Assembly: GCA_963747695.1 (NCBI GenBank)
Contig: CAVVFV010000003.1
Span: forward strand, 81,296 to 145,295
Reading direction: 5' to 3'
DNA: 64,000 nt
Source: Candidatus Falkowbacteria bacterium
GTDB taxonomy: Bacteria; Patescibacteriota; Patescibacteriia; Patescibacteriales; WJLG01
The notes under the pieces are model-generated. The model was not told the origin of the DNA, did not search any database, and worked only from the letters and a program-made list of their open reading frames with translations. Position numbers and translations under genes: made by a program. This document shows positions 7,721 to 58,406 of the stretch, one piece after another. Every line of letters begins with the position of its first letter. Position 1 is the stretch's first letter.

Positions 7721-10700
7721 CTATTTCGCGTCTACAACCTCGATTGAGTCGGAGAATTCTTTTTTAATGGCGCCGACCAGATTGTCATCGTTCCGCACCC
7801 GAAAACCGGCCTGAAAGATCACCGGTTCGTTATTGCGCGTTATCTTGAAGTAAACCAGGCTCGGACCGGTCGCCCCGGCGAGCAGCTCTTTCAAATGGGC
7901 CGCTTCAGTCGGATCAAGCTCGCGTTTAAAGATTAATTTCAAGGGCGGCGGCTGGATCCGCGGCGGCGGTTCGGCCGGCTGGGCATTGGGACGATACATT
8001 CCGTTGCCATTGCCGTTATTGCCATAACCGTTGAATTGCCTTTTGGCCTGCACTTCGATCTTTTTAAAATCATCGATTGATTCAGCCAGCCTGTCCAACG
8101 ACAAGACGGCGGCTTTGTCCACCAGCAATTTCACTTCCTGATCCTTATCGGAAATTTTTCCCTGCACCAAGACGACTTTGCCCTCCTGCCAAAGTTCAAC
8201 GGTTGATTCGTAGAGATTGGGAAACACTAAAAGCTCGGTTGAAGCGACCGCGTCTTCGATCTTGACGAACAGCATCGGTTTATTGCTCCGAGTGATGATC
8301 TTCTTGATCAGCGTGATCACGCCGGCGGCGCGAACCGCGTCTTCGTTCAAGTGGGATGCCAGGCTGTTGATCGGAACGATCAGCTCTCCCAGTTGTTTCT
8401 TAAAATCGTTGAAAGGATGAGCGGAAAGATAAAGTCCCAACAGTTCTTTCTCCCAGGATAATTTTTCCTGTTGGCCGACAGTCGCCGACTTATCCAGCTT
8501 GATCCTCCCGGGCATATTGTTGGTGGAATTGCCGAAAAGGCTCGATTGTTTAGAATCCCGATTGCGGCTGACTTCTTTATTGTATTCCAGAAGTGCTTCC
8601 ATATTGGCCAAAAAGAGGCCGCGGTCGCCGAATTGGTCGAGCGCGCCGCATTTCGTCAGAGATTCCAGAGATTTTTTATTCAAATCCTTGTCCACGATCC
8701 TTTCCAAAAAATCAAAAATATCCCGATATTTGCCGTTAGCTTTCCGCTCTTCGATAATCACATCAACGATATGGCCGCCGACATTCTTAATCGCGTTCAA
8801 ACCGAAGCGGATGAATTCTGCGCTGCTATTTTCATCCTTGACCACGGTGAACGAAGCGAAAGATTCGTTGACGTCCGGCGAAAGAACTTTGATCCCCATA
8901 TTGCGGCATTCTTCGATCTCGATGGCGATGCGATCGATGTCCTGCTGGTCCGAGGTCAACAAGGCAGCCATAAATTCCGCCGGATAATGAGCCTTGAGAT
9001 AGGCCGTTTGATAGCTGGTCATCGCGTAACAAGCGGCATGCGCGCGGCAAAAACCGTAACCGGCGAACGGCTCGATGAAAGAGAAAACCTGCTCGCCCAA
9101 TTCTTTGGGCACGCCGTTCTTGACGCAACCGTCAACGAATTTTTCTTTCTGTTCGGCGAGCAGCTTAGCGATCTTCTTGCCCATCGCTTTGCGCAAAACA
9201 TCGGCCTGACCCATGGTGAAGCCGGCCAGATCGCGGGAAATCTGCATCACCTGCTCCTGATAAACCGCCACGCCATAAGTTTTGTCCAGGATCGGTTTCA
9301 ATTTAGGATGAAGATATTTTACTTTTTTGGTGCCGTGTTTGCCGGCGATATAATCAGGGATCCACTCCATCGGTCCGGGACGGTAGAGCGCGCCCATCGC
9401 GATGATATCTTCAAACACGGTCGGTTTGAGATCTTTCAAATACCGCTTCATCCCCGAAGATTCGAACTGGAAGACGCCGGTGGTTTCGCCGTCTTGAAAC
9501 AATTTATAAGTCAATTTATCATCCAGCGGCAGCTGATCCATTTTCAAGTCGACGCCCCGGGTCCGTTTGATGATCTTCAACGACGATTCGATGATGGTCA
9601 AGTTCTTCAAACCCAAAAAATCCATTTTCAATAAACCCAGATCCTCGATCGGATGCAGCGAATATTGCGAAACCACGGTCAGGTCGGAAGTCGAAGCATA
9701 TTGGATCGGTACGTATTCGGTCAGCGGCTCTTTGGTGATCAAAACTCCGCAGGCGTGCGTCGAGGCATGGCGGGCGACACCTTCCAAGCGCAGCGCGTAA
9801 TCGATTATTTTTTTGGCATCCGGTTCCTTGTCATAGAGATCCCGGAATTCTTTGATATTTTCCAGCGCTTCGGAAAGGTCGGTGAACATCGGGATGGCTT
9901 TGGCTAATTTATCGCAAAAATCATAAGGGATATCCAGTACGCGGCCGACATCGCGCATTGAAGCGCGGGCGGCGATCGTTCCAAAAGTGATGATCTGCGA
10001 AACATGATCCTTGCCGTATTTTCCCTCGACGTAGCGAATTACGGCGTCGCGGCCGGTGTCAGCGAAATCCGTATCGATATCAGGCATGGAGATGCGTTCC
10101 GGATTCAAGAATCTTTCGAAAAGGAGGTCATGGACGATCGGATCGATATTAGTGATACCTAAGAGATAACAAACCAGCGAACCGGCGCCGGAGCCGCGGC
10201 CGGGACCGACAATGATCCCCGAATCTTTGGCCCAATTGATAAAATCGGCCACGATCAGAAAATAAGACGGCCAACCCATTTTTTTTATTACCGATATTTC
10301 ATAATCCAGCCGTTCTTTTCTCACCTTGTCCATTTCTTCGTAAATTTTGCCGTAACGTTTCCGGCAACCCTCATGGGCCAGATGTTCGAGATAAGAAATT
10401 CCATCAAAACCATCCGGCACAGGAAAAAACGGCAGCAGAACCTGTCCGAGAGCGATTTCAACATTGCACATCTCCGCAATCTTTATTGTATTGGCAGCGG
10501 CTTCCGGAATATCTTTAAATGCAGCGATCATTTCCTCGTTAGAACGCAAGGAAAAATCCGTACCCATCATATTCATCCGGTCTTCATCCTCGACTTTCTT
10601 TTTATTCTGCAGGCAAAGCAAAATGTCCTGCGCTTCGGCGTCATCCTTGCGGAAATAATGGACGTCATTGGTAGCAACCAGCGGAACATTCAATTCCTGG

Positions 10701-11284
10701 GAAAAAGCGATCAAGGTTTTATTCAAGAAATCCTGGCCTTCCAGTTCGGGATGATCCTGGATTTCCAGATAAAAATTATCCTGACCGAAAAGTTCGTTGT
10801 ATTCCAAAATCCTTTTCTTGGCTTTTTCCATTTGTCCAGCTTCAATCAGATGCGGGATCTCGCCGCCCATGCAGGCGGTGCAGCCGATCAGCCCGTCGTG
10901 GTATTTTTCCAATAATTCCCAATCGATTCTCGGCTTGTAATAAAAACCTTCCAAGTGCGCGGCCGAAACCAGCTTGATCAGATTTTTATAGCCTTGGTTA
11001 TTTTTAGCAAGTAACAATAAATGATGATTGGCTCGATCTTCGACCGTTTCTTTGAACATCCGGCCGCGGGGCGCCAGATAGGTTTCCACGCCGATAATCG
11101 GTTTGATCCCCTCTTTCTTACATTTTTCATAAAACTCAATCACGCCGTACATCGTGCCGTGATCGGTGATGGCGATCGCCGGCGAACCTTGCTCTTTGGC
11201 ATACTTAACCATCTCGTCGATCTTGGTCAGACCGTCGAGTAAGGAATAATGAGTATGATTGTGGAGATGGACGAAACTCATCAA
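7721..11284 (-). CDS. dnaE: DNA polymerase III alpha subunit
   Basis: 1187 aa. PHP domain start FVHLHNHTHYSLLDG, polymerase core GSGAGSLVCYLLGITNIDP and PDIDTDF, then an OB fold. A C-terminal extension of about 110 aa follows a Gly/Asn/Pro-rich linker. Confidence 0.95.
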   Translation of the reverse strand: MMSFVHLHNHTHYSLLDGLTKIDEMVKYAKEQGSPAIAITDHGTMYGVIEFYEKCKKEGIKPIIGVETYLAPRGRMFKETVEDRANHHLLLLAKNNQGYKNLIKLVSAAHLEGFYYKPRIDWELLEKYHDGLIGCTACMGGEIPHLIEAGQMEKAKKRILEYNELFGQDNFYLEIQDHPELEGQDFLNKTLIAFSQELNVPLVATNDVHYFRKDDAEAQDILLCLQNKKKVEDEDRMNMMGTDFSLRSNEEMIAAFKDIPEAAANTIKIAEMCNVEIALGQVLLPFFPVPDGFDGISYLEHLAHEGCRKRYGKIYEEMDKVRKERLDYEISVIKKMGWPSYFLIVADFINWAKDSGIIVGPGRGSGAGSLVCYLLGITNIDPIVHDLLFERFLNPERISMPDIDTDFADTGRDAVIRYVEGKYGKDHVSQIITFGTIAARASMRDVGRVLDIPYDFCDKLAKAIPMFTDLSEALENIKEFRDLYDKEPDAKKIIDYALRLEGVARHASTHACGVLITKEPLTEYVPIQYASTSDLTVVSQYSLHPIEDLGLLKMDFLGLKNLTIIESSLKIIKRTRGVDLKMDQLPLDDKLTYKLFQDGETTGVFQFESSGMKRYLKDLKPTVFEDIIAMGALYRPGPMEWIPDYIAGKHGTKKVKYLHPKLKPILDKTYGVAVYQEQVMQISRDLAGFTMGQADVLRKAMGKKIAKLLAEQKEKFVDGCVKNGVPKELGEQVFSFIEPFAGYGFCRAHAACYAMTSYQTAYLKAHYPAEFMAALLTSDQQDIDRIAIEIEECRNMGIKVLSPDVNESFASFTVVKDENSSAEFIRFGLNAIKNVGGHIVDVIIEERKANGKYRDIFDFLERIVDKDLNKKSLESLTKCGALDQFGDRGLFLANMEALLEYNKEVSRNRDSKQSSLFGNSTNNMPGRIKLDKSATVGQQEKLSWEKELLGLYLSAHPFNDFKKQLGELIVPINSLASHLNEDAVRAAGVITLIKKIITRSNKPMLFVKIEDAVASTELLVFPNLYESTVELWQEGKVVLVQGKISDKDQEVKLLVDKAAVLSLDRLAESIDDFKKIEVQAKRQFNGYGNNGNGNGMYRPNAQPAEPPPRIQPPPLKLIFKRELDPTEAAHLKELLAGATGPSLVYFKITRNNEPVIFQAGFRVRNDDNLVGAIKKEFSDSIEVVDAK

Positions 11285-11320: not shown

Positions 11321-11734
11321 TCAAGTTAAATTTTTATATTCCTGTTCATATTTATTAACTACTTCTAAAATCCACTTATGTCGGAGCTTATCAGTCATTG
11401 ATTCCAGCTCTTTAAGAGACAGCCATTTCGCATCCATAATTTCATTATTCGGAACATCTAAATTACCGCCAACTATCTTTCCGGCAAAAACATGTTTGGT
11501 AACACTCGCCTTCCAAACACCAACTTTTCCAGTTAACTTCACGAAATACCCCGTCTCTTCCTTAACTTCGCGCACTGCGGCCTCCTCAGGCGTTTCATCC
11601 GGTTCTAATTTACCGGCCGGGAAATTCCAAAGTCCATAAAATTTTTCTTTTTTTTCCTGAACGAATAAATACCGGTTATTTTTTTCCAAAATGGTGGCCG
11701 CTACTGTTAGAATCTTAACAATTTCTTCCGCCAT
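11321..11734 (-). CDS. NUDIX hydrolase
   Basis: Nudix box GKLEPDETPEEAAVREVKEETGY. Confidence 0.85.
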   Translation of the reverse strand: MAEEIVKILTVAATILEKNNRYLFVQEKKEKFYGLWNFPAGKLEPDETPEEAAVREVKEETGYFVKLTGKVGVWKASVTKHVFAGKIVGGNLDVPNNEIMDAKWLSLKELESMTDKLRHKWILEVVNKYEQEYKNLT

Positions 11735-11738
11735 ATAA

Positions 11739-12161
11739 TTATACGAAGTTTTTAAAGCTTTCTTCGTATTTCATCAACGCTTCCAGGATCCAGGGTCCAC
11801 GCAATTTACCGCGCATTGATTCGATCTCCTCAAAAGAAAACCATTGGGCATCCATAATTTCATCTTCGGGAAACTTTAAATCACCGTCGGTTATTTCCAC
11901 GGCATAGGCATGCTTAACCGCGTCTTCGACTTTGTCCTGAAAAATTCCCACCTTACCGATAATTTTAACCGTATAACCCGATTCTTCCTTTGCCTCGCGT
12001 TCCGCCGCTTCCTCCAATGTTTCGCCGACATCAACCCGTCCCGCAGGAAAATTCCAAAGACCGCGTGATGGCTCTCCCTTTTCTTGAACTAATAAATACC
12101 GATAATCCTTTTCCAAAATAGCCGCCGCTACCACCGGCACTTTGATTATTTCTTTCTCCAT
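11739..12161 (-). CDS. NUDIX hydrolase, tandem paralog; start probably at the internal MEKEII
   Basis: Nudix box GRVDVGETLEEAAEREAKEESGY. It is collinear with the downstream paralog along its whole length. Confidence 0.85.
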   Translation of the reverse strand: MEKEIIKVPVVAAAILEKDYRYLLVQEKGEPSRGLWNFPAGRVDVGETLEEAAEREAKEESGYTVKIIGKVGIFQDKVEDAVKHAYAVEITDGDLKFPEDEIMDAQWFSFEEIESMRGKLRGPWILEALMKYEESFKNFV

Positions 12162-12270
12162 ATTTTTATATTCTAATAAACACAAAAAATCTCACTTTAC
12201 ATTTTGAGATTTACATTTTGCACCTTGCAAACGCCTCCTTGTCAGATACATATTATCACAAAGAAAGAAT

Positions 12271-12616: not shown

Positions 12617-12880
12617 TTATTGATTCAAATCGTTGCCGGTTACTGCATTCAGTCCGTTACTCATGATGTTTCCGTATTGACCGGATAAACTTTTGATCTG
12701 CGGCCAGAGCATGATCAAGCCGACTACGACGGGCGCGATGATCAAAACAATCACCAGCCACTGATAAATCTCAGCGCGGACGAAGTGATTCTTGATCCCC
12801 TTAACCATTATTTTCATTTCCGCCACATCCTCAGCTAATTTTTTTAAATCTTCATCCATAGATATTAAATAAAAATGCAA
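12617..12880 (-). CDS. Hypothetical small membrane protein, 87 aa, one TM segment
   Basis: The ORF has the hydrophobic segment WLVIVLIIAPVVVGLIMLW. Confidence 0.45.
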   Translation of the reverse strand: MHFYLISMDEDLKKLAEDVAEMKIMVKGIKNHFVRAEIYQWLVIVLIIAPVVVGLIMLWPQIKSLSGQYGNIMSNGLNAVTGNDLNQ

Positions 12881-12929
12881 ATCTCAAAATATAAAATTTT
12901 TCATTTTGAGATTTTAATTTTAAATTTAT

Positions 12930-13670
12930 TTATCCTCGTCCTTCACACTTCTTCACATATTCCCGCCCGATAGCCGCAAATTTTTCCATTTCTTTAGCGC
13001 TAAATCCTGGCTGGCCGCGCAAATTCATATCAATCAAAGCCGTATCGGATTTAAAATTCTGCAAAAACCATTTATCCGCGCCCCTGATCAATTCCCCCAT
13101 TTTGGCGAAAGATCCTTCGGTGACAAAACCAGGGACGCAAGTCGTTCGAAACTCGTAAGGCAGCCCGCTCGACATAATCAGTTTAACACTTTCCTTAATT
13201 TTATTGAAATCGAATTTGGTCCCGGTAGCGCGGTGGTAATCTTCCGGCGCGGCTTTCAGATCCATCGCCAGATAGTCGATCAGCTTATCGGCCAATAATT
13301 TTTTGAGCATCTCCGGATTGGTGCCGTTGGTATCGAGTTTTATTTTATAGCCCAAATCCCGAATCCGGCGGATAAAATCCGGCAAATCCGGGTGCAAGGT
13401 CGGCTCGCCGCCGGTGATAACCACGGCGTCCAATTTATTTTTTCGGCTTTCGAGGAAAAGAAAAAGACCATCCTCGTTTAACAGAGTATGATCTTTGTCT
13501 GTTCCTTTGCCTTGCGGCAAAGTATTTCCACTCCTATCCAAACCGGACAGGACAAGCATGGGATTATAGCAAAACGGGCATTGGAAGGTGCAACCTATCG
13601 TAAAAACCACTGCTGACAATTCGCCCGGGTAATCGATCAAGCTTAATTTTTCTAATCCACCGATTTTCAT
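12930..13670 (-). CDS. nrdG: Anaerobic ribonucleoside-triphosphate reductase activating protein (radical SAM)
   Basis: GCTFQCPFCYNP (CxxxCxxC) and ITGGEPTL. It is the last gene of the nrdR-nrdD operon. Confidence 0.9.
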   Translation of the reverse strand: MKIGGLEKLSLIDYPGELSAVVFTIGCTFQCPFCYNPMLVLSGLDRSGNTLPQGKGTDKDHTLLNEDGLFLFLESRKNKLDAVVITGGEPTLHPDLPDFIRRIRDLGYKIKLDTNGTNPEMLKKLLADKLIDYLAMDLKAAPEDYHRATGTKFDFNKIKESVKLIMSSGLPYEFRTTCVPGFVTEGSFAKMGELIRGADKWFLQNFKSDTALIDMNLRGQPGFSAKEMEKFAAIGREYVKKCEGRG

Positions 13671-13709
13671 AGCCTTAGCCGGTTAGAAACCAGCTAACCG
13701 ACCATGAAA

Positions 13710-13859
13710 TTAATTAAAATCCTTTTCGACCACGGAAAAAGTTTTCCGGTCGGCAAACTCGGCCTTCTTGCCCTTGTTCCAGTTCTTCACCGGCGTCAAC
13801 CAACCGACCACGCGGCTGTAAACGATGCATTCCTGTCTCTTGATTTTTGTCGGACTCAT
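13710..13859 (-). CDS. Stand-alone glycyl-radical peptide corresponding to the C-terminus of class III RNR NrdD (49 aa)
   Basis: Below the ORF-track size cutoff. My translation is MSPTKIKRQECIVYSRVVGWLTPVKNWNKGKKAEFADRKTFSVVEKDFN. YSRVVGW...NWNKGKK.EF..RK matches the NrdD glycyl-radical region (RVxGY type). AAGGAG sits 4 nt upstream of the ATG. Confidence 0.7.
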   Translation of the reverse strand: MSPTKIKRQECIVYSRVVGWLTPVKNWNKGKKAEFADRKTFSVVEKDFN

Positions 13860-14008
13860 ACTCCTTGAGTTAAGAGATAAGAAATAAGAGATAAGAAATT
13901 AATAGGATCTTCTATTAATTTTCTCATTCCAATTAGCTTAACCCTTTATTTTTATTTTAATTTTGTAAAAAAATTTTATCTCTAATCTCTGCTCTCTTAT
14001 CTCTTATC

Positions 14009-16153
14009 TTATGCTATGGCATTGATGATATCCCTTTCCTTGCCGCTATGGTTCGCTTCCTCAGCTTCGATTGCCACCGGTCGCGCCGTCATTTCTTCCC
14101 CTTTCGCTACGGCTACGGAGGACAAGTCCGCTGCCATTTCGCGATATCCCATTTCCTCGTCGCACTTGGGGCAGAATTTATGTTCGCCCGCCAGATAACC
14201 ATGCTTAGGACAGATGGAAAAAGTCGGCGTCAAAGTGAAATAAGGCAGATGATAACCGTAAACGATCTTCTTGATCAAACGCTTGGCCGCTTCCGGATCG
14301 TCGATTTTCTGGCCGAGAAAGCCGTGCAACACCGTGCCGCCGGTATATTTGGTCTGCAATTCATCCTGCAAGTCCAAGGCTTCAAAAATATCATTGGTAT
14401 AATTCACCGGCAAATGGGTGGAGTTGGTGTAATAAGGATCAGCCCCCTGTTTCACCGCCTCGTCGTTGGCCACGATGATGTTGGGATAGACTTCTTTGTC
14501 TTTTTTGGCAAAGCGATAAGTCGTGCCCTCGGCCGGCGTGGCTTCCAAATTGTATAAATTATTGGTTTCGTTCTGATAATTCTTCAGCTTCTCGCGCATA
14601 AAATCCAGAATCTCCAGGGCAAATGCTTTGCCTTCCGGCGAGGCGATATCCCGCTTCATAAAATTCAAGAGCGACTCGTTCATCCCGTTGATGCCAATGG
14701 TGGAAAAATGATTCTGCCAAAATTTACCGAATCTTTCCCTGATCTCGGATAGATAAAATTTAGAATAAGGATAAAGCCCGTCTTCGGTAAATCTTTCCAA
14801 AATCTTCCTTTTGATTTCCAAACTTTCCTTGGCCAGATCCATCAGATGGCCCAAGCGCATTTTGTAATCTTCTTTGTCCTTGGCTAAGAAACCGACTCGG
14901 GCCAGATTAATGGTCACCACGCCGATCGAACCGGTCAAAGGGTTGGCGCCGAACAATCCGCCGCCGCGCTTTCTTAATTCACGGTTATCCAATCTTAGCC
15001 GGCAGCACATACTGCGGGCGTCTTCCGGCTTCATATCCGAATTAACGAAATTGGAGAAATAAGGAATACCATATTTGGCGGTCATCTCCCAAACTCCCTT
15101 GAGCGAGGGACGATCCCATTCAAAATTCCGGTCAATATTATAAGTTGGGATGGGAAAAGAAAACATCCGGTGTTTGGAATCGCCGTCCAGCATTATTTCG
15201 GTGAAGGTTTCGTTGAAAATATCGATCTCCGGTTGAAAATCCTTGTACTTTTCCGGCATAATTTTGCCGCCGATCACCACGCATTCCTCGGCCAAAGTGC
15301 CGATCGGTTTGACGTCCAGGGTAACATTGGTGAACGGAGTCTGAAAACCGACGCGGGTCGGCACATTCATATTGAAAACGAATTCCTGTAAAGCTTGGCG
15401 GACTTCTTTCTTGGTCAGGTTGTCATATCTGATGAACGGCGCCAGATAAGTATCAAAATTGGAAACCGCGCAAGCGCCGGCCAGTTCGCCCTGCATCGTA
15501 TAAAGGAAATTCACTAATTGCCCCAAGGCGCTGCGAAAATGCTTGGCCGGTCCGGATTGCGTCTTCTCATCGACACCGGCGAAGCCTCTGACTAACAAGT
15601 CTTTCAAATTCCAACCGGCGCAATAGGAGGCCAGCATGCCCAAATCATGGATATGCAAATCAGCATTGATATGCGCATCTCTGATTTCAATCGGATATAA
15701 TTTATTCAGCCAATATTTGGCGGAAATGGAAGAAGCCAGATAATTATTCAAACCCTGGACGGAAAAACTCATATTGCTGTTCTCTTTAAGGCGCCAATCA
15801 GCCCGGCCCAGATAATCTTCCATTAATTTTTCGTCGTTGGTCTTGGCGTTGAGATCACGCAACTGGCGGTGCTGGTCGCGATAAAGTATAAAAGCTTTGG
15901 CCAAAGGAATCTGTTTGCTCTCAATCAGGGTCTCCTCGACCATATCCTGGATCTCTTCGACGGCCGGAATACTGCGGGCATGGAATTTCCTGGACAATTT
16001 ATCGACCACCTGGTTGGTCAGCTTTTCCGCCAAATCAGGGTCGTTGCTTCCCACCGATTCCTGCGCCTTTTTGATGGCGGCGGTGATCTTTTCCCGGTTA
16101 AAATCGACGATCTCACCCGAGCGCTTACGAATTTGCGAAATAATGTTTGGCAT
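14009..16153 (-). CDS. nrdD: Anaerobic ribonucleoside-triphosphate reductase, large fragment lacking the glycyl-radical motif
   Basis: 714 aa with an N-terminal ATP-cone, class III core blocks (MCCRLRLD, GVVTINL) and a C-terminal Zn ribbon CPKHG...CPKCD. It then continues with a non-canonical 45-aa tail and a stop. No RVxGY motif lies in this ORF. Confidence 0.9.
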   Translation of the reverse strand: MPNIISQIRKRSGEIVDFNREKITAAIKKAQESVGSNDPDLAEKLTNQVVDKLSRKFHARSIPAVEEIQDMVEETLIESKQIPLAKAFILYRDQHRQLRDLNAKTNDEKLMEDYLGRADWRLKENSNMSFSVQGLNNYLASSISAKYWLNKLYPIEIRDAHINADLHIHDLGMLASYCAGWNLKDLLVRGFAGVDEKTQSGPAKHFRSALGQLVNFLYTMQGELAGACAVSNFDTYLAPFIRYDNLTKKEVRQALQEFVFNMNVPTRVGFQTPFTNVTLDVKPIGTLAEECVVIGGKIMPEKYKDFQPEIDIFNETFTEIMLDGDSKHRMFSFPIPTYNIDRNFEWDRPSLKGVWEMTAKYGIPYFSNFVNSDMKPEDARSMCCRLRLDNRELRKRGGGLFGANPLTGSIGVVTINLARVGFLAKDKEDYKMRLGHLMDLAKESLEIKRKILERFTEDGLYPYSKFYLSEIRERFGKFWQNHFSTIGINGMNESLLNFMKRDIASPEGKAFALEILDFMREKLKNYQNETNNLYNLEATPAEGTTYRFAKKDKEVYPNIIVANDEAVKQGADPYYTNSTHLPVNYTNDIFEALDLQDELQTKYTGGTVLHGFLGQKIDDPEAAKRLIKKIVYGYHLPYFTLTPTFSICPKHGYLAGEHKFCPKCDEEMGYREMAADLSSVAVAKGEEMTARPVAIEAEEANHSGKERDIINAIA

Positions 16154-16218
16154 AACGGCAAGTTAGAAGGAAGAAGTTAGAAGTAAGAAAATTTTTCCGA
16201 TTTCTCACTTCTGACTTC

Positions 16219-16689
16219 TTACTTCTTACTTTTCTTTTTATCCTCTAAAATTTTATTTAAAGTTTCTTTAAAATCCTTGGCATTATTAAACGATTCGTAT
16301 ACTGAAGCGAAACGGATGTAAGCGACCACATCGGTCTCCTTCAAGTGTTTCATAACGATCTCCCCGATCTCTGCCGACGTTACTTCGTTCTTTTTCAGCT
16401 GTTGGATATCGCGTTCGATATTGTGGACCAATTTTTTGAAATCATCTTCGCTAACCGGCCTTTTCTCCAAAGCTTTTTTCAAGCCGGAAACCAATTTGTC
16501 GCGGCTATAAGCTTCTTTTTGGCCATCACGCTTGACAACTGTCAAATCCAAAATTTCCATTTCCTCAAAAGTCGAGAAACGAAAGCCGCATTTCTCGCAT
16601 TCGCGTCGCCGGCGGATCGAAAGTCCGTCGGAAGCCACCCGTGAATCGATAACTTTGGTATCTTCGTAATAACAAATGGGACAGATCAT
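16219..16689 (-). CDS. nrdR: Transcriptional repressor NrdR
   Basis: Zn ribbon MICPICYYEDTKVIDSR...CEKCGFRFSTFE followed by an ATP-cone. Confidence 0.95.
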   Translation of the reverse strand: MICPICYYEDTKVIDSRVASDGLSIRRRRECEKCGFRFSTFEEMEILDLTVVKRDGQKEAYSRDKLVSGLKKALEKRPVSEDDFKKLVHNIERDIQQLKKNEVTSAEIGEIVMKHLKETDVVAYIRFASVYESFNNAKDFKETLNKILEDKKKSKK

Positions 16690-16871
16690 AGAATATGATG
16701 CGAATCTACGAATTAATACTAATGCCGCGAAAACCGCGAATAATTTATGCGCTCATCCGCAAGTTGATCAATTCACATTTTTTGCGGCATTCGCGCTCAT
16801 TTGCGGATTCGCGTCATAACTTAGTGGGGAAATTGACTTTAGCTACTAATTGTGTCTTAATTATGGTTCAA

Positions 16872-17198: not shown

Positions 17199-18605
17199 AT
17201 GAAAAGAACGACCAATATCGCCATCTGGCTGATTTCCTTAACTATTATTTTCGGCGTGGCCAAGATTTCGTTCGCCCAGGATATCAACCCCGACTTTGAT
17301 CCGAACTATATCATCAGCGACGCGGAAATTTTTAATTATAATTCGATGGATGCCACGGACATCCAGAATTTTCTGCAGGCCAAGGGCAGCTATCTGTCCG
17401 CTTACACCGTGACCAATCCGACTGGCGTTTGTGAAACCGCCGCTCAAGCCATCTATGAAGTCTGTCAGGCCAACAAGATCAGCCCGCGTTTCGTCCTGGT
17501 GCTCTTGCAAAAAGAACAAGGCTTGATTGAAGATCCCAATCCGTCCCCGGCGAGCCTAGATTGGGCCACCGGCTATGGCTGTCCTGACGGCGGCGGCTGC
17601 AATCCGCGCTGGCAAGGTTTTTGGAAACAGATCAACAGCGCGACGCTCCAATTCTACGATTATATGGTAAATCCGCTCGAATATGCTTATCGGGCCGGTG
17701 CCACTTATACCTTTCAAAATTCCTGTTCGGCTTACAACAATCCCCCTTCCTCGATGATCACGCCTTACAATCTGGCTACGGCTGCTTTATACAATTACAC
17801 GCCGCACGTTTTTAACGGCAATTATAATTTTTACATCCTCTGGCAAAAATATTTCGCCCGCAACTACCCGGACGGGTCGCTACTCCAGATCAAGGACCAA
17901 AAAACAGTCTGGCTGATCCAGGATGGCAAGAAACGGCCCTTCGCCTCGATGAGCGTTTTGGCCTCGAGATTCGACACCAATCAGATCATTACGGTCGAAA
18001 AAGCCGATCTGGATAAATTCGGCACCAGCACGCCGATCAAATTCGCTAATTATTCATTGGTCCGCTCCCCGCACGGCACGGTTTATCTTTTGGTCGATGA
18101 CGAAAAGCGAGGTTTCACCTCCAAGGCCGTCTTTAAAAAATTCGGCTATAACCCGGCGGAAGTTGTCGCCGCGGGCTGGACTGATCTCGATTCTTATCCT
18201 GAAGGCGCGCCGCTATCCGCCACCTCCACTTATCCAACCGGCGCTTTATTGCAGGACGTAAAGACCGGCGGCGTCTATTGGGTCTATGACGGCAAAAAGG
18301 CCGCTATCGGGGATCGTGGCCTGCTCGCGTCGAGCAAATTCAAGAACAAAAAAATCATCAAATCCAACGCGGCGGAATTGGCGCAATACCCAACCACCGA
18401 CCCGATACTTTTTGGCGATGGCACGCTTTTGAGTTCACCATCCTCGCCGGCCATTTATCTCATTTATGAAGGCAAAAAAAGGCCGTTTATGTCCTCGGAT
18501 CTGCTCGCGAAACTTGGCTACAAACTTTCCAATGTCATCAAAGTCTCGCCGCAATTCCTGGCCAATTATGACAACGGCGAGGTGATAAAAGAAAACAACT
18601 TCTAA
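17199..18605 (+). CDS. Secreted protein with four C-terminal repeats of about 55 aa; hypothetical, possibly cell-wall associated
   Basis: Signal peptide MKRTTNIAIWLISLTIIFGVAKISFAQD. The repeats are WLIQDGKKRPFASMSVLASRF, YLLVDDEKRGFTSKAVFKKFGY, YWVYDGKKAAIGDRGLL and YLIYEGKKRPFMSSDLLAKLGY. Confidence 0.6.
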   Translation: MKRTTNIAIWLISLTIIFGVAKISFAQDINPDFDPNYIISDAEIFNYNSMDATDIQNFLQAKGSYLSAYTVTNPTGVCETAAQAIYEVCQANKISPRFVLVLLQKEQGLIEDPNPSPASLDWATGYGCPDGGGCNPRWQGFWKQINSATLQFYDYMVNPLEYAYRAGATYTFQNSCSAYNNPPSSMITPYNLATAALYNYTPHVFNGNYNFYILWQKYFARNYPDGSLLQIKDQKTVWLIQDGKKRPFASMSVLASRFDTNQIITVEKADLDKFGTSTPIKFANYSLVRSPHGTVYLLVDDEKRGFTSKAVFKKFGYNPAEVVAAGWTDLDSYPEGAPLSATSTYPTGALLQDVKTGGVYWVYDGKKAAIGDRGLLASSKFKNKKIIKSNAAELAQYPTTDPILFGDGTLLSSPSSPAIYLIYEGKKRPFMSSDLLAKLGYKLSNVIKVSPQFLANYDNGEVIKENNF

Positions 18606-18725
18606 AATGATACGAATACTGCGAATTATTCGCTAATACTACAAACTCCACGAAACGAATTTAAAATTCGTTAAAATGTTCGCGGTATTCGCGAAAAATT
18701 TGTAGTATTCGCATCATATTATTTT

Positions 18726-43382: not shown

Positions 43383-43385
43383 AAA

Positions 43386-43474
43386 AATATCCAATATCAA
43401 ATAATCAATATTTTTAAAAAATATTTAAATATTAAAATATTTTTTGGATATTTGTTATTTGATATCGGATATTT
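43386..43474. repeat. AT-rich palindromic spacer with the ATATCCAATATCAAATAA theme, copy 1
   Basis: AATATCCAATATCAAATAATCAATA ... TTGGATATTTGTTATTTGATATCGGATATT. The same words recur at 45640-45734. Confidence 0.75.
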
Positions 43475-45635: not shown

Positions 45636-45639
45636 AACA

Positions 45640-45734
45640 AATATCCAATATCAAATAACCAATACTCAAAACAATATTAAAATATTTTAATATTAAATTA
45701 TTTTTTGGTTATTTGATATTTTTTATTGGTTATT
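45640..45734. repeat. AT-rich palindromic spacer with the ATATCCAATATCAAATAA theme, copy 2
   Basis: AAATATCCAATATCAAATAACCAATA ... TTGGTTATTTGATATTTTTTATTGGTTAT. Confidence 0.75.
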
Positions 45735-55907: not shown

Positions 55908-56732
55908 TTATTCCCGCATCAATTCATCAAAGGTCGGTTCTTCGACTTGATAGAAAATGCCCAGCGGAATTTTTGGCGAGCTGACATCGGAATAATCCCA
56001 TTCTCTAGCCTTGGCCAGCGCGGCTGACTTATCCGACGGATTATGCTGTTCGTCCAAATGATAAACGCTGTTGCGATAATATTCGTAGGTGTTGAAAAAA
56101 GTAAAACACGGCTGCAAAACTTCCACAAAAGAAAAGCCCTGATGCGTCACGGCTTTTTTTATTATTTCGCGCAAAAATTCCGCGTCGCCGGCAAACCCGC
56201 GGGCGACGAAAGTCGCGCCGGTGATGATCATTAATTCGAGCGGATTGAACGGCTTGTCCAACGAACCGTCGGGAGTCGATTTACCTCTGAATTTCTGCGG
56301 CGAAGTCGGCGAGACTTGGCCGGTGGTTAGCGCGTAAACGCGATTATCATGGATGATCGAAGTGATATTGATATTCCGCTTGGCCGCAAACAGCAGATGA
56401 TCAATCCCCTCCCCATAGGAATCGCCATCGCCGGCCAGGGCGACGACGGTTAATTCCGGGCGGGCAATTTTTATTCCGGTCGCCGGAGCCACGGAACGGC
56501 CATGCAGAGAATAAAAAGAATTTACCTTTAGATAATCGGCGATCTTGCCGTGGCAGCCGATGCCGGTCGTCACCGCCAGATTTTCCCGTTTGACTTTTCC
56601 TTCATTGATCAATTCGGCAAAAGCTTTTTTTACGGCGATCTCGATCCCGAAATTGCCGCAGCCCGGGCACCAGGTGTTCGGACAGGCGGTGCTTAAATCG
56701 GCCACCGCCACGTTTGTTTTAACCGCTTCCAT
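55908..56732 (-). CDS. 2-oxoacid:ferredoxin oxidoreductase, beta (TPP-binding) subunit
   Basis: WCPGCGNFGI and GDGDSYGEGIDH. Confidence 0.9.
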   Translation of the reverse strand: MEAVKTNVAVADLSTACPNTWCPGCGNFGIEIAVKKAFAELINEGKVKRENLAVTTGIGCHGKIADYLKVNSFYSLHGRSVAPATGIKIARPELTVVALAGDGDSYGEGIDHLLFAAKRNINITSIIHDNRVYALTTGQVSPTSPQKFRGKSTPDGSLDKPFNPLELMIITGATFVARGFAGDAEFLREIIKKAVTHQGFSFVEVLQPCFTFFNTYEYYRNSVYHLDEQHNPSDKSAALAKAREWDYSDVSSPKIPLGIFYQVEEPTFDELMRE

Positions 56733-56747
56733 ATTTTTAGAGTTTAA

Positions 56748-58406
56748 TTATAAATATTGTTTGATTTTTTCCGCCAATTCCTTGACCGTGAACGGCCGGC
56801 CGTCATATTTTAATATTTTGGCGTCAATCTTGAAACCCGCCGCCTCTACCAAACCGCACAACTGACCGGTGCTATTACACTCAACACCGATAATTTTCTT
56901 AGCGCCTTTCAATTTTTCCTTTAGCTCCCCAACCGGCAGCGGATGAACGACCAGCGGCTGCACCACCCGGCAGCCCAATCTCGCGGCCGCCTCAACCACG
57001 CTGCCTTTAGTCGACCCCCAAACCAAGAGAACAACTTCGCTTTTTTCATCGCCGTAAGTTTTAACCGTTTGGCGTTTTTTTAATTCTGCCTCGATGGTTG
57101 CCGCTTTTTTTCTCCTTTTTTCGACATTCTTCACCGTCCATTCCCCTTCCTCGGTGGTGATACCGTCTTCGTCATGCTCATAGCTGTCGGATTTAACGAC
57201 CGCACCGGCTTGGCCAGGGAAAGCCAGCGGCGAAATACCATCATCAGTTAAGAGATAACGGCGGTACTCCCCTGCTTTATCCCAAAGTTTGATTGGCCTG
57301 ATCTCGCCGGCGATTTTGTCTGGATCAGTTGAAAAAGTGCTTTCACACAAATGTTTATCGCCCAAAATGATCACCGGAATCTGAAATTGCCAGGCCAAAT
57401 TCTGCGCGTCGCGGGCGGCTTCGATCGCTTCTTCAGTATCGCCCGGAGCGATCAGGATCCGGGGAAATTCACCGTGGCCGGCATACAAAGCGAATAATAA
57501 TTCACCCTGGCCGGTATAAGTCGGCAAACCGGTTGCCGGACCCGGGCGCATACCCAGAATTATCACCAGGGGAATTTCCGCTTGACCCGCCAAGCTCAAA
57601 TGCTCGACCATCAAGGCAAATCCCCCGCCCGAAGTTGCGACCATCGAGCGTTTGCCGGCATAAGCCGCGCCTTCGGCCATCCCGATCACGCCGATTTCAT
57701 TTTCCGCATGCACCACGCTTAAATTATATTTCTGTTGATTTTCCGCCAGATAATGCAGAATGGCGGTGACCGGAGTCATCGGGTAAGCCGCATAAAATTC
57801 CAGCCCGCCCTTTACCGCGCCGATCGCCATGGCTTCGTTGCCAGTCATCAATTGCGCAGGCGCTTTATCCAGTCGGTTAAGCGCAAATTTTTTCCCCGAA
57901 CTCGCCGCCAGATCATAAGCTTCACGGGCGATCGCCAAGTTCTCGTCCACTTTCTTATTGAGAGAATTCCTGATGACTTTTTCCACCAGGGAAAAATCAA
58001 CGCCTAAAACCGCGGCTAATACTCCCAACACCGCCGTATTGCGGACAATCGGCGGCAAATTGCTCTTTTTAACCATCGCCGTCAGCGCAAAACCGGCTCC
58101 GTCGGCTTTTACCGTGTCAGAATCGAAAATGACCAAGGAATTTTCTTTGAGGTGAGAAGAATGACGGCTGATCGTATTCTGGTCCATCGCGATCAGAATA
58201 TCGATTTGATCTTCGTGAGCCAGGATCTTTTCGGAAGCCGCGCGGATGATGGAAAAATTATGGCCGCCGCGGATAATCGAGGGATAATCCTCATAAACGA
58301 AAATCCAATAACCGAATTCGTTCAGCAGGCCGGCAATACTGGCTCCCGCCTGCCGTACCCCGTCTCCGGCTTTACCGCCGATCAGAATCGAACATTCATT
58401 AAGCAT
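56748..58406 (-). CDS. 2-oxoacid:ferredoxin oxidoreductase, fused gamma-alpha subunit
   Basis: 552 aa. N-terminal gamma-like IGGKAGDGV, followed by the alpha domain YPMTPVT. Adjacent to the beta subunit. Confidence 0.9.
   Translation of the reverse strand: MLNECSILIGGKAGDGVRQAGASIAGLLNEFGYWIFVYEDYPSIIRGGHNFSIIRAASEKILAHEDQIDILIAMDQNTISRHSSHLKENSLVIFDSDTVKADGAGFALTAMVKKSNLPPIVRNTAVLGVLAAVLGVDFSLVEKVIRNSLNKKVDENLAIAREAYDLAASSGKKFALNRLDKAPAQLMTGNEAMAIGAVKGGLEFYAAYPMTPVTAILHYLAENQQKYNLSVVHAENEIGVIGMAEGAAYAGKRSMVATSGGGFALMVEHLSLAGQAEIPLVIILGMRPGPATGLPTYTGQGELLFALYAGHGEFPRILIAPGDTEEAIEAARDAQNLAWQFQIPVIILGDKHLCESTFSTDPDKIAGEIRPIKLWDKAGEYRRYLLTDDGISPLAFPGQAGAVVKSDSYEHDEDGITTEEGEWTVKNVEKRRKKAATIEAELKKRQTVKTYGDEKSEVVLLVWGSTKGSVVEAAARLGCRVVQPLVVHPLPVGELKEKLKGAKKIIGVECNSTGQLCGLVEAAGFKIDAKILKYDGRPFTVKELAEKIKQYL

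Follow-up and report, generated by a model that had tools for sequence, protein, structure and literature searches.

A class III ribonucleotide reductase locus in a Candidatus Falkowbacteria genome with the glycyl-radical segment encoded in a separate small gene

Organisation of the Locus

Here, we describe the genes of a class III (anaerobic) ribonucleotide reductase (RNR) in a 64,000-nucleotide (nt) stretch of DNA from a Candidatus Falkowbacteria bacterium (GenBank assembly GCA_963747695.1, contig CAVVFV010000003.1, positions 81,296 to 145,295 of the forward strand), which is referred to as the window throughout. The glycyl-radical segment, in other organisms the C-terminal part of the catalytic protein NrdD, is encoded at this locus in a separate open reading frame (ORF) of 49 amino acids (aa). 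Along the minus strand, the order is nrdR, nrdD-large (714 aa), a spacer of 149 nt, the 49-aa ORF and nrdG. The features are as follows, with positions counted from the first letter of the window:

16219-16689, minus strand: nrdR, 156 aa, NrdR-type repressor, heading the cluster (Pfam Zn_ribbon_NrdR, E = 7e-20; ATP-cone, E = 4e-22)
14009-16153, minus strand: nrdD-large, 714 aa, predicted catalytic body of a class III RNR without the glycyl-radical segment (NF006126; Pfam NRDD)
15866-16135, minus strand: ATP-cone, aa 7-96 of nrdD-large (Pfam PF03477, E = 3.7e-22)
15002-15007, minus strand: Cys383-Cys384 in the SMCCRL finger-loop motif, presumed thiyl-radical site (alignment of 12 NrdDs; role from the structures in PMC9669993)
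14162-14212, minus strand: Zn ribbon, C648-x2-H651 ... C661-x2-C664 (sequence reading)
14012-14146, minus strand: 45-aa C-terminal tail Y670-A714, ending in ...SGKERDIINAIA and followed by TAA at 14011-14009
13860-14008, minus strand: AT-rich spacer of 149 nt from stop codon to ATG, 24% GC, containing an imperfect palindrome
13861-13866, minus strand: AAGGAG, Shine-Dalgarno sequence of the small ORF, 1 base ahead of the ATG at 13859
13710-13859, minus strand: small ORF, 49 aa, predicted glycyl-radical subunit MSPTKIKRQECIVYSRVVGWLTPVKNWNKGKKAEFADRKTF..., Gly19 at 13803-13805 (Pfam NRDD)
12930-13670, minus strand: nrdG, 246 aa, radical S-adenosylmethionine activase (TIGR02495 NrdG2, E = 2.1e-59)

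Much of this layout had been proposed in an earlier note made from the letters of the window. The 714-aa nrdD with ATP-cone, catalytic core and Zn ribbon agrees in coordinates, Pfam matches and sequence reading, and the 45-aa tail with its stop at 14009 was found as described (Y670-A714, TAA at 14011-14009). The gap of about 150 nt with an imperfect palindrome measures 149 nt, with palindrome arms that are 80% complementary. The AAGGAG site and the new ORF carrying the missing glycyl-radical segment were likewise borne out, the latter by its match to Pfam NRDD (positions 531-562, E = 1.1e-8) and by its Gly-Trp motif, as was the placement of nrdG downstream, which begins 39 nt after the small ORF and scores 200 bits with the NrdG2 model (cut-off 131). 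The Shine-Dalgarno sequence of the small ORF is the strongest among the three genes in the window, which is consistent with, although no proof of, a higher synthesis of the small subunit.

Division of NrdD between Two Proteins

On the Pfam NRDD profile of 562 positions, the two proteins are exactly complementary. Residues 124-667 of the large protein cover positions 1-530 (E = 2.9e-179), and the 49-aa ORF covers positions 531-562, including the RVVG motif, at a score above the gathering threshold. The NCBIfam models NF006126 and TIGR02487 agree with Pfam on this division, with NF006126 matching the large protein at 1034 bits (cut-off 548) over profile positions 3-660 of 684. The radical motif [YFW]SR..G[YFW] is absent from the 714-aa protein and from all of its 120 best homologues (0/120), which are 71-100% identical and 674-742 aa long.

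Apart from the radical segment, the large protein has what a class III RNR is expected to have. In an alignment of 12 diverse NrdDs, M382, C383, C384, R385 and L386 of the SMCCRL motif (aa 381-386) are invariant, as are the Zn-ribbon ligands and many residues of the barrel, and the CxxH...CxxC pattern of the Zn ribbon recurs in 71 of 77 loci examined. When the conserved Cys11 of the small peptide, a candidate fourth Zn ligand, was assessed for covariation with CxxH or CxxC, every sequence had CxxH. Among the features by which a class III RNR is recognised without biochemistry, the barrel, the Zn ribbon, the finger-loop cysteines and an adjacent NrdG are present; RVxG[YFW] is missing from the barrel polypeptide and is found elsewhere in the system, namely in the 49-aa ORF. 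By every sequence criterion, the locus is therefore that of a class III RNR, save that the radical motif lies off the barrel polypeptide.

The tails that follow the Zn ribbon in homologues from the sub-clade of the window have a variable acidic middle and a conserved end, ER[DN]II..[IL]A, as seen also upon comparison with the closest relative not of the same strain (locus L082, NrdD 93% identical). The last 13 aa of nrdD-large (window 14012-14050, ...SGKERDIINAIA) fall within this conserved ending; the tails of other sub-clades finish in a CxxC pair instead. This pattern suggests that the ER[DN]II..[IL]A end is a candidate short docking motif.

The Small ORF as a Gene

The small ORF lies in a frame different from that of nrdD, and six further stop codons in the nrdD frame are contained in the spacer. 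With the 49-aa protein as query, 113 clusters at 90% identity were retrieved, all of them 41-70 aa long and all marked as Pfam NRDD; those with a named source are mostly from Patescibacteria or Falkowbacteria. In the alignment of small proteins, R8, Y14, R16, V17, G19, P23 and E34 are invariant (Gly19 in 114 sequences), and the N-terminal Met-Ser-Pro is conserved. Across 26 loci of clade A, the median proportion of synonymous differences is 0.83, that is, saturated, and that of nonsynonymous differences is 0.18; for those clade-A pairs with a finite synonymous rate, the ratio of nonsynonymous to synonymous substitution rates (dN/dS) of the small ORF is about 0.07.

When 1.84 billion cluster representatives were searched with a profile, 4703 matched at E <= 1e-3, and the best 150 of these are all 47-123 aa in length. 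Among the newly retrieved small-protein sequences, 141 of 146 start with Met. In the window, the radical glycine, Gly19, is followed by Trp, and among the retrieved profile matches this position is occupied by Tyr in 109, Phe in 20 and Trp in 10. Other split clades carry GY or GF, and by these counts Trp after Gly is a trait of the clade of the window rather than of the split.

The peptide belongs to the NRDD family. PF13597 (NRDD) is its only Pfam match at E <= 0.1, and it does not match PF01228, the glycyl-radical domain of the pyruvate formate-lyase (PFL) type. A phmmer search of the Protein Data Bank with the 49-aa peptide returned nothing at E <= 1, the query being too short.

Conservation of the Split among Relatives

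To place the window among its relatives, 80 species-representative loci were taken from GTDB genomes, and the Zn-ribbon and Gly-motif regions were located in each; 76 loci were informative. In 44 of these, NrdD is split at the same point, and in the other 32 it is contiguous. The earlier note had suggested looking for the same split in related genomes, and these loci answer it in the affirmative, including the conservation of the small ORF. It had also held that ordinary NrdDs reach VYSRV within a few residues of the Zn ribbon; accordingly, the contiguous relatives have 2-8 residues between CxxC and [CT]EVYSRVxGY. In the split loci, the large ORF stops 9-48 aa past the Zn ribbon. The distance from there to the small ORF has a median of 72 nt; most loci fall within 11-201 nt, one has 276 nt, and two have about 1.5 kb. 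The relative frame of the two ORFs is 0, 1 or 2 in 24, 9 and 11 split loci, respectively, and the small ORF starts with ATG in 40 and with GTG or TTG in 4.

Over 5001 nt, an independent assembly from Logan (run ERR11748453) matches the window with 100% identity and still has the split gene, so that the contiguous nrdD by which an assembly artefact would have been recognised did not appear. The exact 49-aa protein is on record in other assemblies, and a relative in the Joint Genome Institute data (93% NrdD identity) has the same architecture. In L082, DNA similarity to the window sets in again precisely with the small-ORF ATG, and a similar AAGGAG precedes that ATG.

The split is shared down to about 60% NrdD identity, at which level the closest contiguous relatives are also found. 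On a simple neighbour-joining tree of the NrdD body, it occurs in four places, namely in a large clade of Patescibacteria with a single contiguous exception (L028), in a Moranbacteria-type clade, in Caldisericota, and in a clade of metagenome-assembled genomes (MAGs) of Leptospirales that is nested among contiguous NrdDs. The same break point has thus arisen, or was kept, more than once, and the split of the Leptospirales/Spirochaetota appears, from this placement, to be independent.

The gene order nrdR, large, small, nrdG is conserved, with nrdR upstream of nrdD in most split loci and large and small genes adjacent in 42 of the 44. The small ORF lies nearer to nrdG than to the large gene, in most clade-A relatives 9-20 nt before nrdG. 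In the two Caldisericota loci (L050 and L063), about 1.5 kb separates the large from the small gene, and the small gene still stands beside nrdG.

Several of these loci have peculiarities of their own. The intervening ORF of one Caldisericota locus (L050:6044-7525) is unrelated, is annotated with 526 aa and overlaps the end of nrdD-large, with the small ORF about 100 nt upstream of nrdG. In three Moranbacteria-type loci (L041, L057, L064), the small subunit measures 87-110 aa, ends its radical motif in GF and has a CxxC...CxxC ribbon of its own N-terminal to that motif. The loci from Leptospirales/Spirochaetota MAGs (L038, L040, L056, L058, L067) have small ORFs of about 60 aa that follow after 24-51 nt and are preceded by good AGGAG sites; in at least three of them, the large subunit has CP[FY][ED]H in place of the second CxxC.

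The Spacer and Other Intergenic Palindromes

The arms of the spacer palindrome (13868-13902 and 13975-14009) comprise 35 nt each. The RNA fold of the spacer reaches -40.5 kcal/mol (z = -3.5), whereas dinucleotide shuffles average -28.1 +/- 3.5 and none of 200 is as stable. The word AAGAGATAAG, with at most one mismatch, is present at 8 sites of the window, where 3.15 would be expected, and four of the eight lie inside the spacer.

Long imperfect palindromes are found in many other intergenic gaps of the window as well (2595-2743, 12864-12929, 16160-16240, 16694-16818, 18603-18721, 43385-43474 and 45636-45731). Each of the window palindromes uses its own short word, for instance AAGAAGT in the gap between nrdR and nrdD or a CGAAT-type word upstream of nrdR, and one palindrome also follows nrdG; the former suggestion that AAGAGATAAG is an element repeated throughout the window is not supported. 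These palindromes may be terminators, RNA-stability elements or fast-evolving hairpins.

The spacer of L082 has an unrelated sequence, lacks the palindrome and does not fold significantly (z = -0.8), and the hairpin of the window is therefore treated as a generic intergenic palindrome. The spacers of relatives have a very high AT content and share neither a common length nor a common sequence, and that of the window, at 149 nt, is longer than the family median of 72 nt. Since the split is common to relatives most of which have no palindrome, the palindrome sits in a gap that pre-existed. From these comparisons, we read it as one of a genome-wide class of intergenic hairpins rather than the cause of the split.

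A scan of the window spacer revealed neither a sigma-70-like promoter nor a canonical terminator. A promoter-like motif, TTGTAA-N17-TATAAT, that is not found in the window recurs in the spacers of seven related loci (L003, L006, L009, L013, L017, L023, L029), each instance being marginal against shuffles (p ~0.03-0.1). Its recurrence suggests that the small ORF and nrdG may have their own promoter in that sub-clade.

Viral Copies of the Small Gene

Scanning IMG/VR with the alignment of small proteins yielded 73 viral loci (L237-L309), for each of which 10 kb were refetched on either side. In 68 of them, the motif is contained in a short free-standing ORF of roughly 45-60 aa. Examples from IMG/VR are:

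L237:10001-10135, viral small gene
L246:7028-7156, viral small gene
L301:10001-10138, viral small gene

The presence of nrdD was checked by tblastn with a panel of 77 sequences and by a hidden Markov model built from 12 diverse NrdDs. In 69 of the 73 loci, the small gene has no nrdD within 10 kb; nrdD was found in only four, and a clear nrdG in only two. Genes near the viral small ORF, some of them several kb away, include those for a collagen-like tail fibre (PHROG, E = 1e-59), the terminase large subunit, an M23 endolysin and RNase H. As phages apparently carry the radical mini-gene by itself, the peptide is hard to explain unless it acts in trans on a large subunit encoded elsewhere, which presumably would be that of the host. 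This distribution suggests that the viral small gene is a trans-acting, replaceable radical module, and it may represent a new and very small auxiliary metabolic gene.

A viral nrdD in another IMG/VR locus (3300000477_000201, L221:3001-6042) matches over 3042 nt for 664 query residues, which points to about 1 kb of inserted sequence; this may be an intein, an intron or a homing endonuclease.

Neighbouring Genes in the Window

Nucleotide and replication genes are clustered in the window. Between the nrd cluster and dnaE (7721-11284), there are two tandem NUDIX hydrolase genes (137 and 148 aa; 11321-12185), and L082 has a single NUDIX gene at the corresponding place. Farther away, a 552-aa ORF (56748-58406; window region 55908-58406) matches the pyruvate:ferredoxin oxidoreductase domains POR and POR_N; these matches are in keeping with an organism that lives anaerobically and depends solely on an oxygen-sensitive RNR.

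A Probable Two-Subunit Class III RNR

The evidence is best explained, in our judgement with a probability of about 0.86, by a naturally two-subunit class III RNR of which the small peptide would be an obligate part. This explanation draws on gene anatomy, conservation, purifying selection, independent starts and orphan phage copies, all of which were observed directly, and it corresponds to the first of three possibilities raised in the earlier note, a natural two-piece enzyme, which has gained from the conservation of the split across deep divergence, from purifying selection on both pieces and from the separate start of the small ORF. Given that a glycyl-radical domain is missing from the large subunit, the peptide would be an obligate subunit and not a back-up. 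We regard the feature as real, and as a new structural variant of a known enzyme that many uncultivated bacteria share; its extension to phages had not been anticipated.

Where NrdD structures have been solved, the glycyl-radical domain at the C-terminus lies in the barrel beside the finger-loop cysteine (PMC9669993). By analogy, the 714-aa protein would supply the ATP-cone, the alpha/beta barrel with the finger-loop cysteines and the Zn ribbon, but no radical site. The 49-aa protein, translated separately from its own ATG and Shine-Dalgarno sequence, would supply the glycyl-radical segment. NrdG would act on the small subunit, either free or bound loosely, by abstracting a hydrogen atom from its Gly19, and the peptide would dock non-covalently in the barrel at the canonical position of the glycyl-radical domain. 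The glycyl radical would then give rise to a thiyl radical on the finger loop, and nucleotide reduction would proceed as in single-chain NrdD. Non-covalent assembly, activation by NrdG and an advantage in repair or replacement are what we infer from the genes.

Oxygen cleaves glycyl-radical enzymes at the glycine (PMC13450708). Because the radical site is destroyed by this backbone cleavage, a detachable 49-aa carrier would limit replacement to the small peptide; after oxygen damage, the peptide would be renewed and the large body kept, and phages would exploit the detachable carrier by supplying a peptide copy of their own. The wider proposal is that, in much of the Patescibacteria and in several other lineages, the radical segment of NrdD is a free, consumable carrier which is charged by NrdG and swapped after cleavage by oxygen, and that phages bring the mini-gene alone, as an auxiliary metabolic gene by which the RNR body of the host would stay charged while it is infected. 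This proposal is held more tentatively, at somewhat less than even odds.

Several points weigh against a two-subunit enzyme. The evidence is sequence-based, and the repair advantage is a hypothesis by analogy to GrcA. AlphaFold2 applied to a fused large and small chain (118 homologues) gave an unusable model with a mean pLDDT (predicted local distance difference test score) of 51.6 and the barrel unmodelled, and docking is consequently argued from homology. Among the short proteins in the databases, some may be fragments predicted where a contig ends. Hallmark genes were used to confirm that the IMG/VR contigs are viral in a few loci only, and most of these contigs are incomplete, which leaves room for an nrdD beyond 10 kb. 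Finally, the data are individual loci, and a second, contiguous nrdD elsewhere in these genomes is possible.

It is this last point that favours the alternative with the best standing, although we consider it improbable, namely that the 49-aa protein is a true GrcA-like spare part for a full-length NrdD encoded elsewhere and that the 714-aa protein is a non-catalytic or regulatory paralogue. The orphan phage copies, which show the peptide to be useful away from an adjacent large gene, would also suit it. It is, however, at odds with the adjacency of large and small genes in 42 of 44 split cellular loci and with the strong conservation of finger-loop cysteines, ATP-cone and Zn ribbon in the large protein. 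All 120 of the nearest large homologues lack the Gly motif, and the contiguous form has thus not been seen in the clade; nor is there any RNR among the ten largest other ORFs of the window.

Less probable still is removal of the insert of about 300 nt at the RNA level, by a self-splicing intron as in phage T4 nrdD or by another element, whereupon the spliced mRNA would encode a contiguous NrdD. Group I introns are known in phage nrdD genes (PMC3653736), and the spacer hairpin would bring the nrdD stop near the start of the small ORF. An Rfam scan of 13300-14700 on both strands, however, detected no intron and nothing under E = 1 (best E = 1.6). Some relatives have spacers of 11-35 nt, and in the shortest case the total extra sequence relative to a contiguous NrdD is about 90 nt, which leaves no room for a self-splicing intron, an intein or a bypass element. 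Spacer sequence and length are unconserved, L082 has no significant hairpin, the start codon and the Met-Ser-Pro that follows from it are conserved, and in Caldisericota a separate gene stands between the pieces, in two loci. The RNA-level explanation, the second possibility of the earlier note, is abandoned on these grounds. As to inteins, neither protein matches a Hint or intein family in Pfam, and the family-wide minimum of extra sequence is a tail of about 10 aa plus a lead of about 10 aa.

Ribosome hopping, frameshifting or readthrough over the spacer, comparable to T4 gene 60, would likewise give one fused protein, and the hairpin straight after the stop codon superficially resembles the gene 60 take-off site. 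We nevertheless find such a mechanism very hard to credit. The spacer contains six stops in the nrdD frame, with the small ORF in another frame; relatives differ freely in spacer length (11 to ~1500 nt) and in relative frame; take-off and landing codons that match are absent; the small ORF begins at a conserved ATG behind a Shine-Dalgarno sequence of its own; and phage small genes stand without an upstream nrdD.

That a palindromic element recently interrupted nrdD and left it to decay, the third possibility of the earlier note, or that the split is an assembly or frameshift error, has next to nothing in its favour beyond a palindrome of the kind found in other gaps of the window and a spacer above the family median (149 vs 72 nt), and is contradicted by an independent assembly with identical DNA, by a split common to relatives down to about 60% NrdD identity and mostly without the palindrome, by the dN/dS of about 0.07 of the small ORF and by the invariant catalytic motifs of the large one.

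Significance of a Proposed Separate Radical Subunit

Searches of the searchable literature returned no description of a two-gene class III RNR whose radical peptide is separate. In pipeline annotations, the large protein passes for a complete NrdD, and its small partner is listed as hypothetical or as a fragment. A large phylogeny of RNRs excluded sequences under 400 residues (PMC9531940), and with such a filter the small subunit stays hidden from surveys of this kind. Ribonucleotide reduction is essential in anaerobes with small genomes that possibly face transient oxygen.

If the wider proposal of a consumable carrier is correct, no earlier glycyl-radical enzyme would have had a radical subunit that is obligatorily separate. 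The glycyl-radical domain is generally thought to swing out of the barrel for access by the activase, and a separate 49-aa radical peptide would constitute a natural system in which activation, docking and radical transfer have separable parts. According to a review of June 2026, formate lyases are the sole class of glycyl-radical enzymes with known spare-part proteins (PMC13450708); the system described here would extend the idea to ribonucleotide reduction and, under the wider proposal, would be the first outside that class.

Comparison with Known Systems

Single-chain NrdD with NrdG, as known from phage T4 (1H7A), Thermotoga maritima (4COI) and Prevotella copri (8P23), has the same domains in the same order and an adjacent nrdG. 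Here, in comparison, the cut in the chain falls after the Zn ribbon and ahead of the glycyl-radical segment; the large piece has gained a tail of 10-69 aa, and the radical segment has gained an initiator Met and about 10 N-terminal residues.

Interruptions of the same gene near conserved regions are known from the group I intron of T4 nrdD (sunY) and from intron- or intein-split phage nrdD genes (PMC3653736). In contrast to these, the present locus has no intron or intein signature, its extra sequence is too short, and its two ORFs are independently translated, as judged from their gene structure. A split RNR of class I is nrdA-a/nrdA-b of Aeromonas phage Aeh1, in which the RNR large subunit is functional from two separately translated genes (PMC3045599, PMC3653736). 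However, that gene was split by insertion of the homing endonuclease mobE in a single phage, while the split described here is ancient, is found in many cellular lineages and has no endonuclease.

In class II, a split RNR is known in NrdJa/NrdJb of Pseudomonas aeruginosa, also found in Thermus phage phiYS40, in which the catalytic chain is likewise encoded in two consecutive genes with a short spacer. The second chain, NrdJb, contributes the C-terminal module with Zn finger and Cys pair (PMC9669993, PMC3653736). NrdJa/NrdJb nevertheless belong to another RNR class with another cofactor, and NrdJb is a folded multi-domain protein that carries no radical and not a peptide of about 50 aa.

The likeness to GrcA/YfiD, which had been drawn in the earlier note, holds in part. 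Both are small free-standing glycyl-radical segments given in trans to a barrel enzyme, and both have a phage version; phage T4 Y06I is the phage-encoded spare part of the GrcA/YfiD type for PFL. The analogy fails where the partner and the sequence family are concerned: GrcA/YfiD serves as a back-up for a PFL already equipped with a radical domain, while the large subunit described here has none, and the peptide is of the NRDD type, with no match to PF01228.

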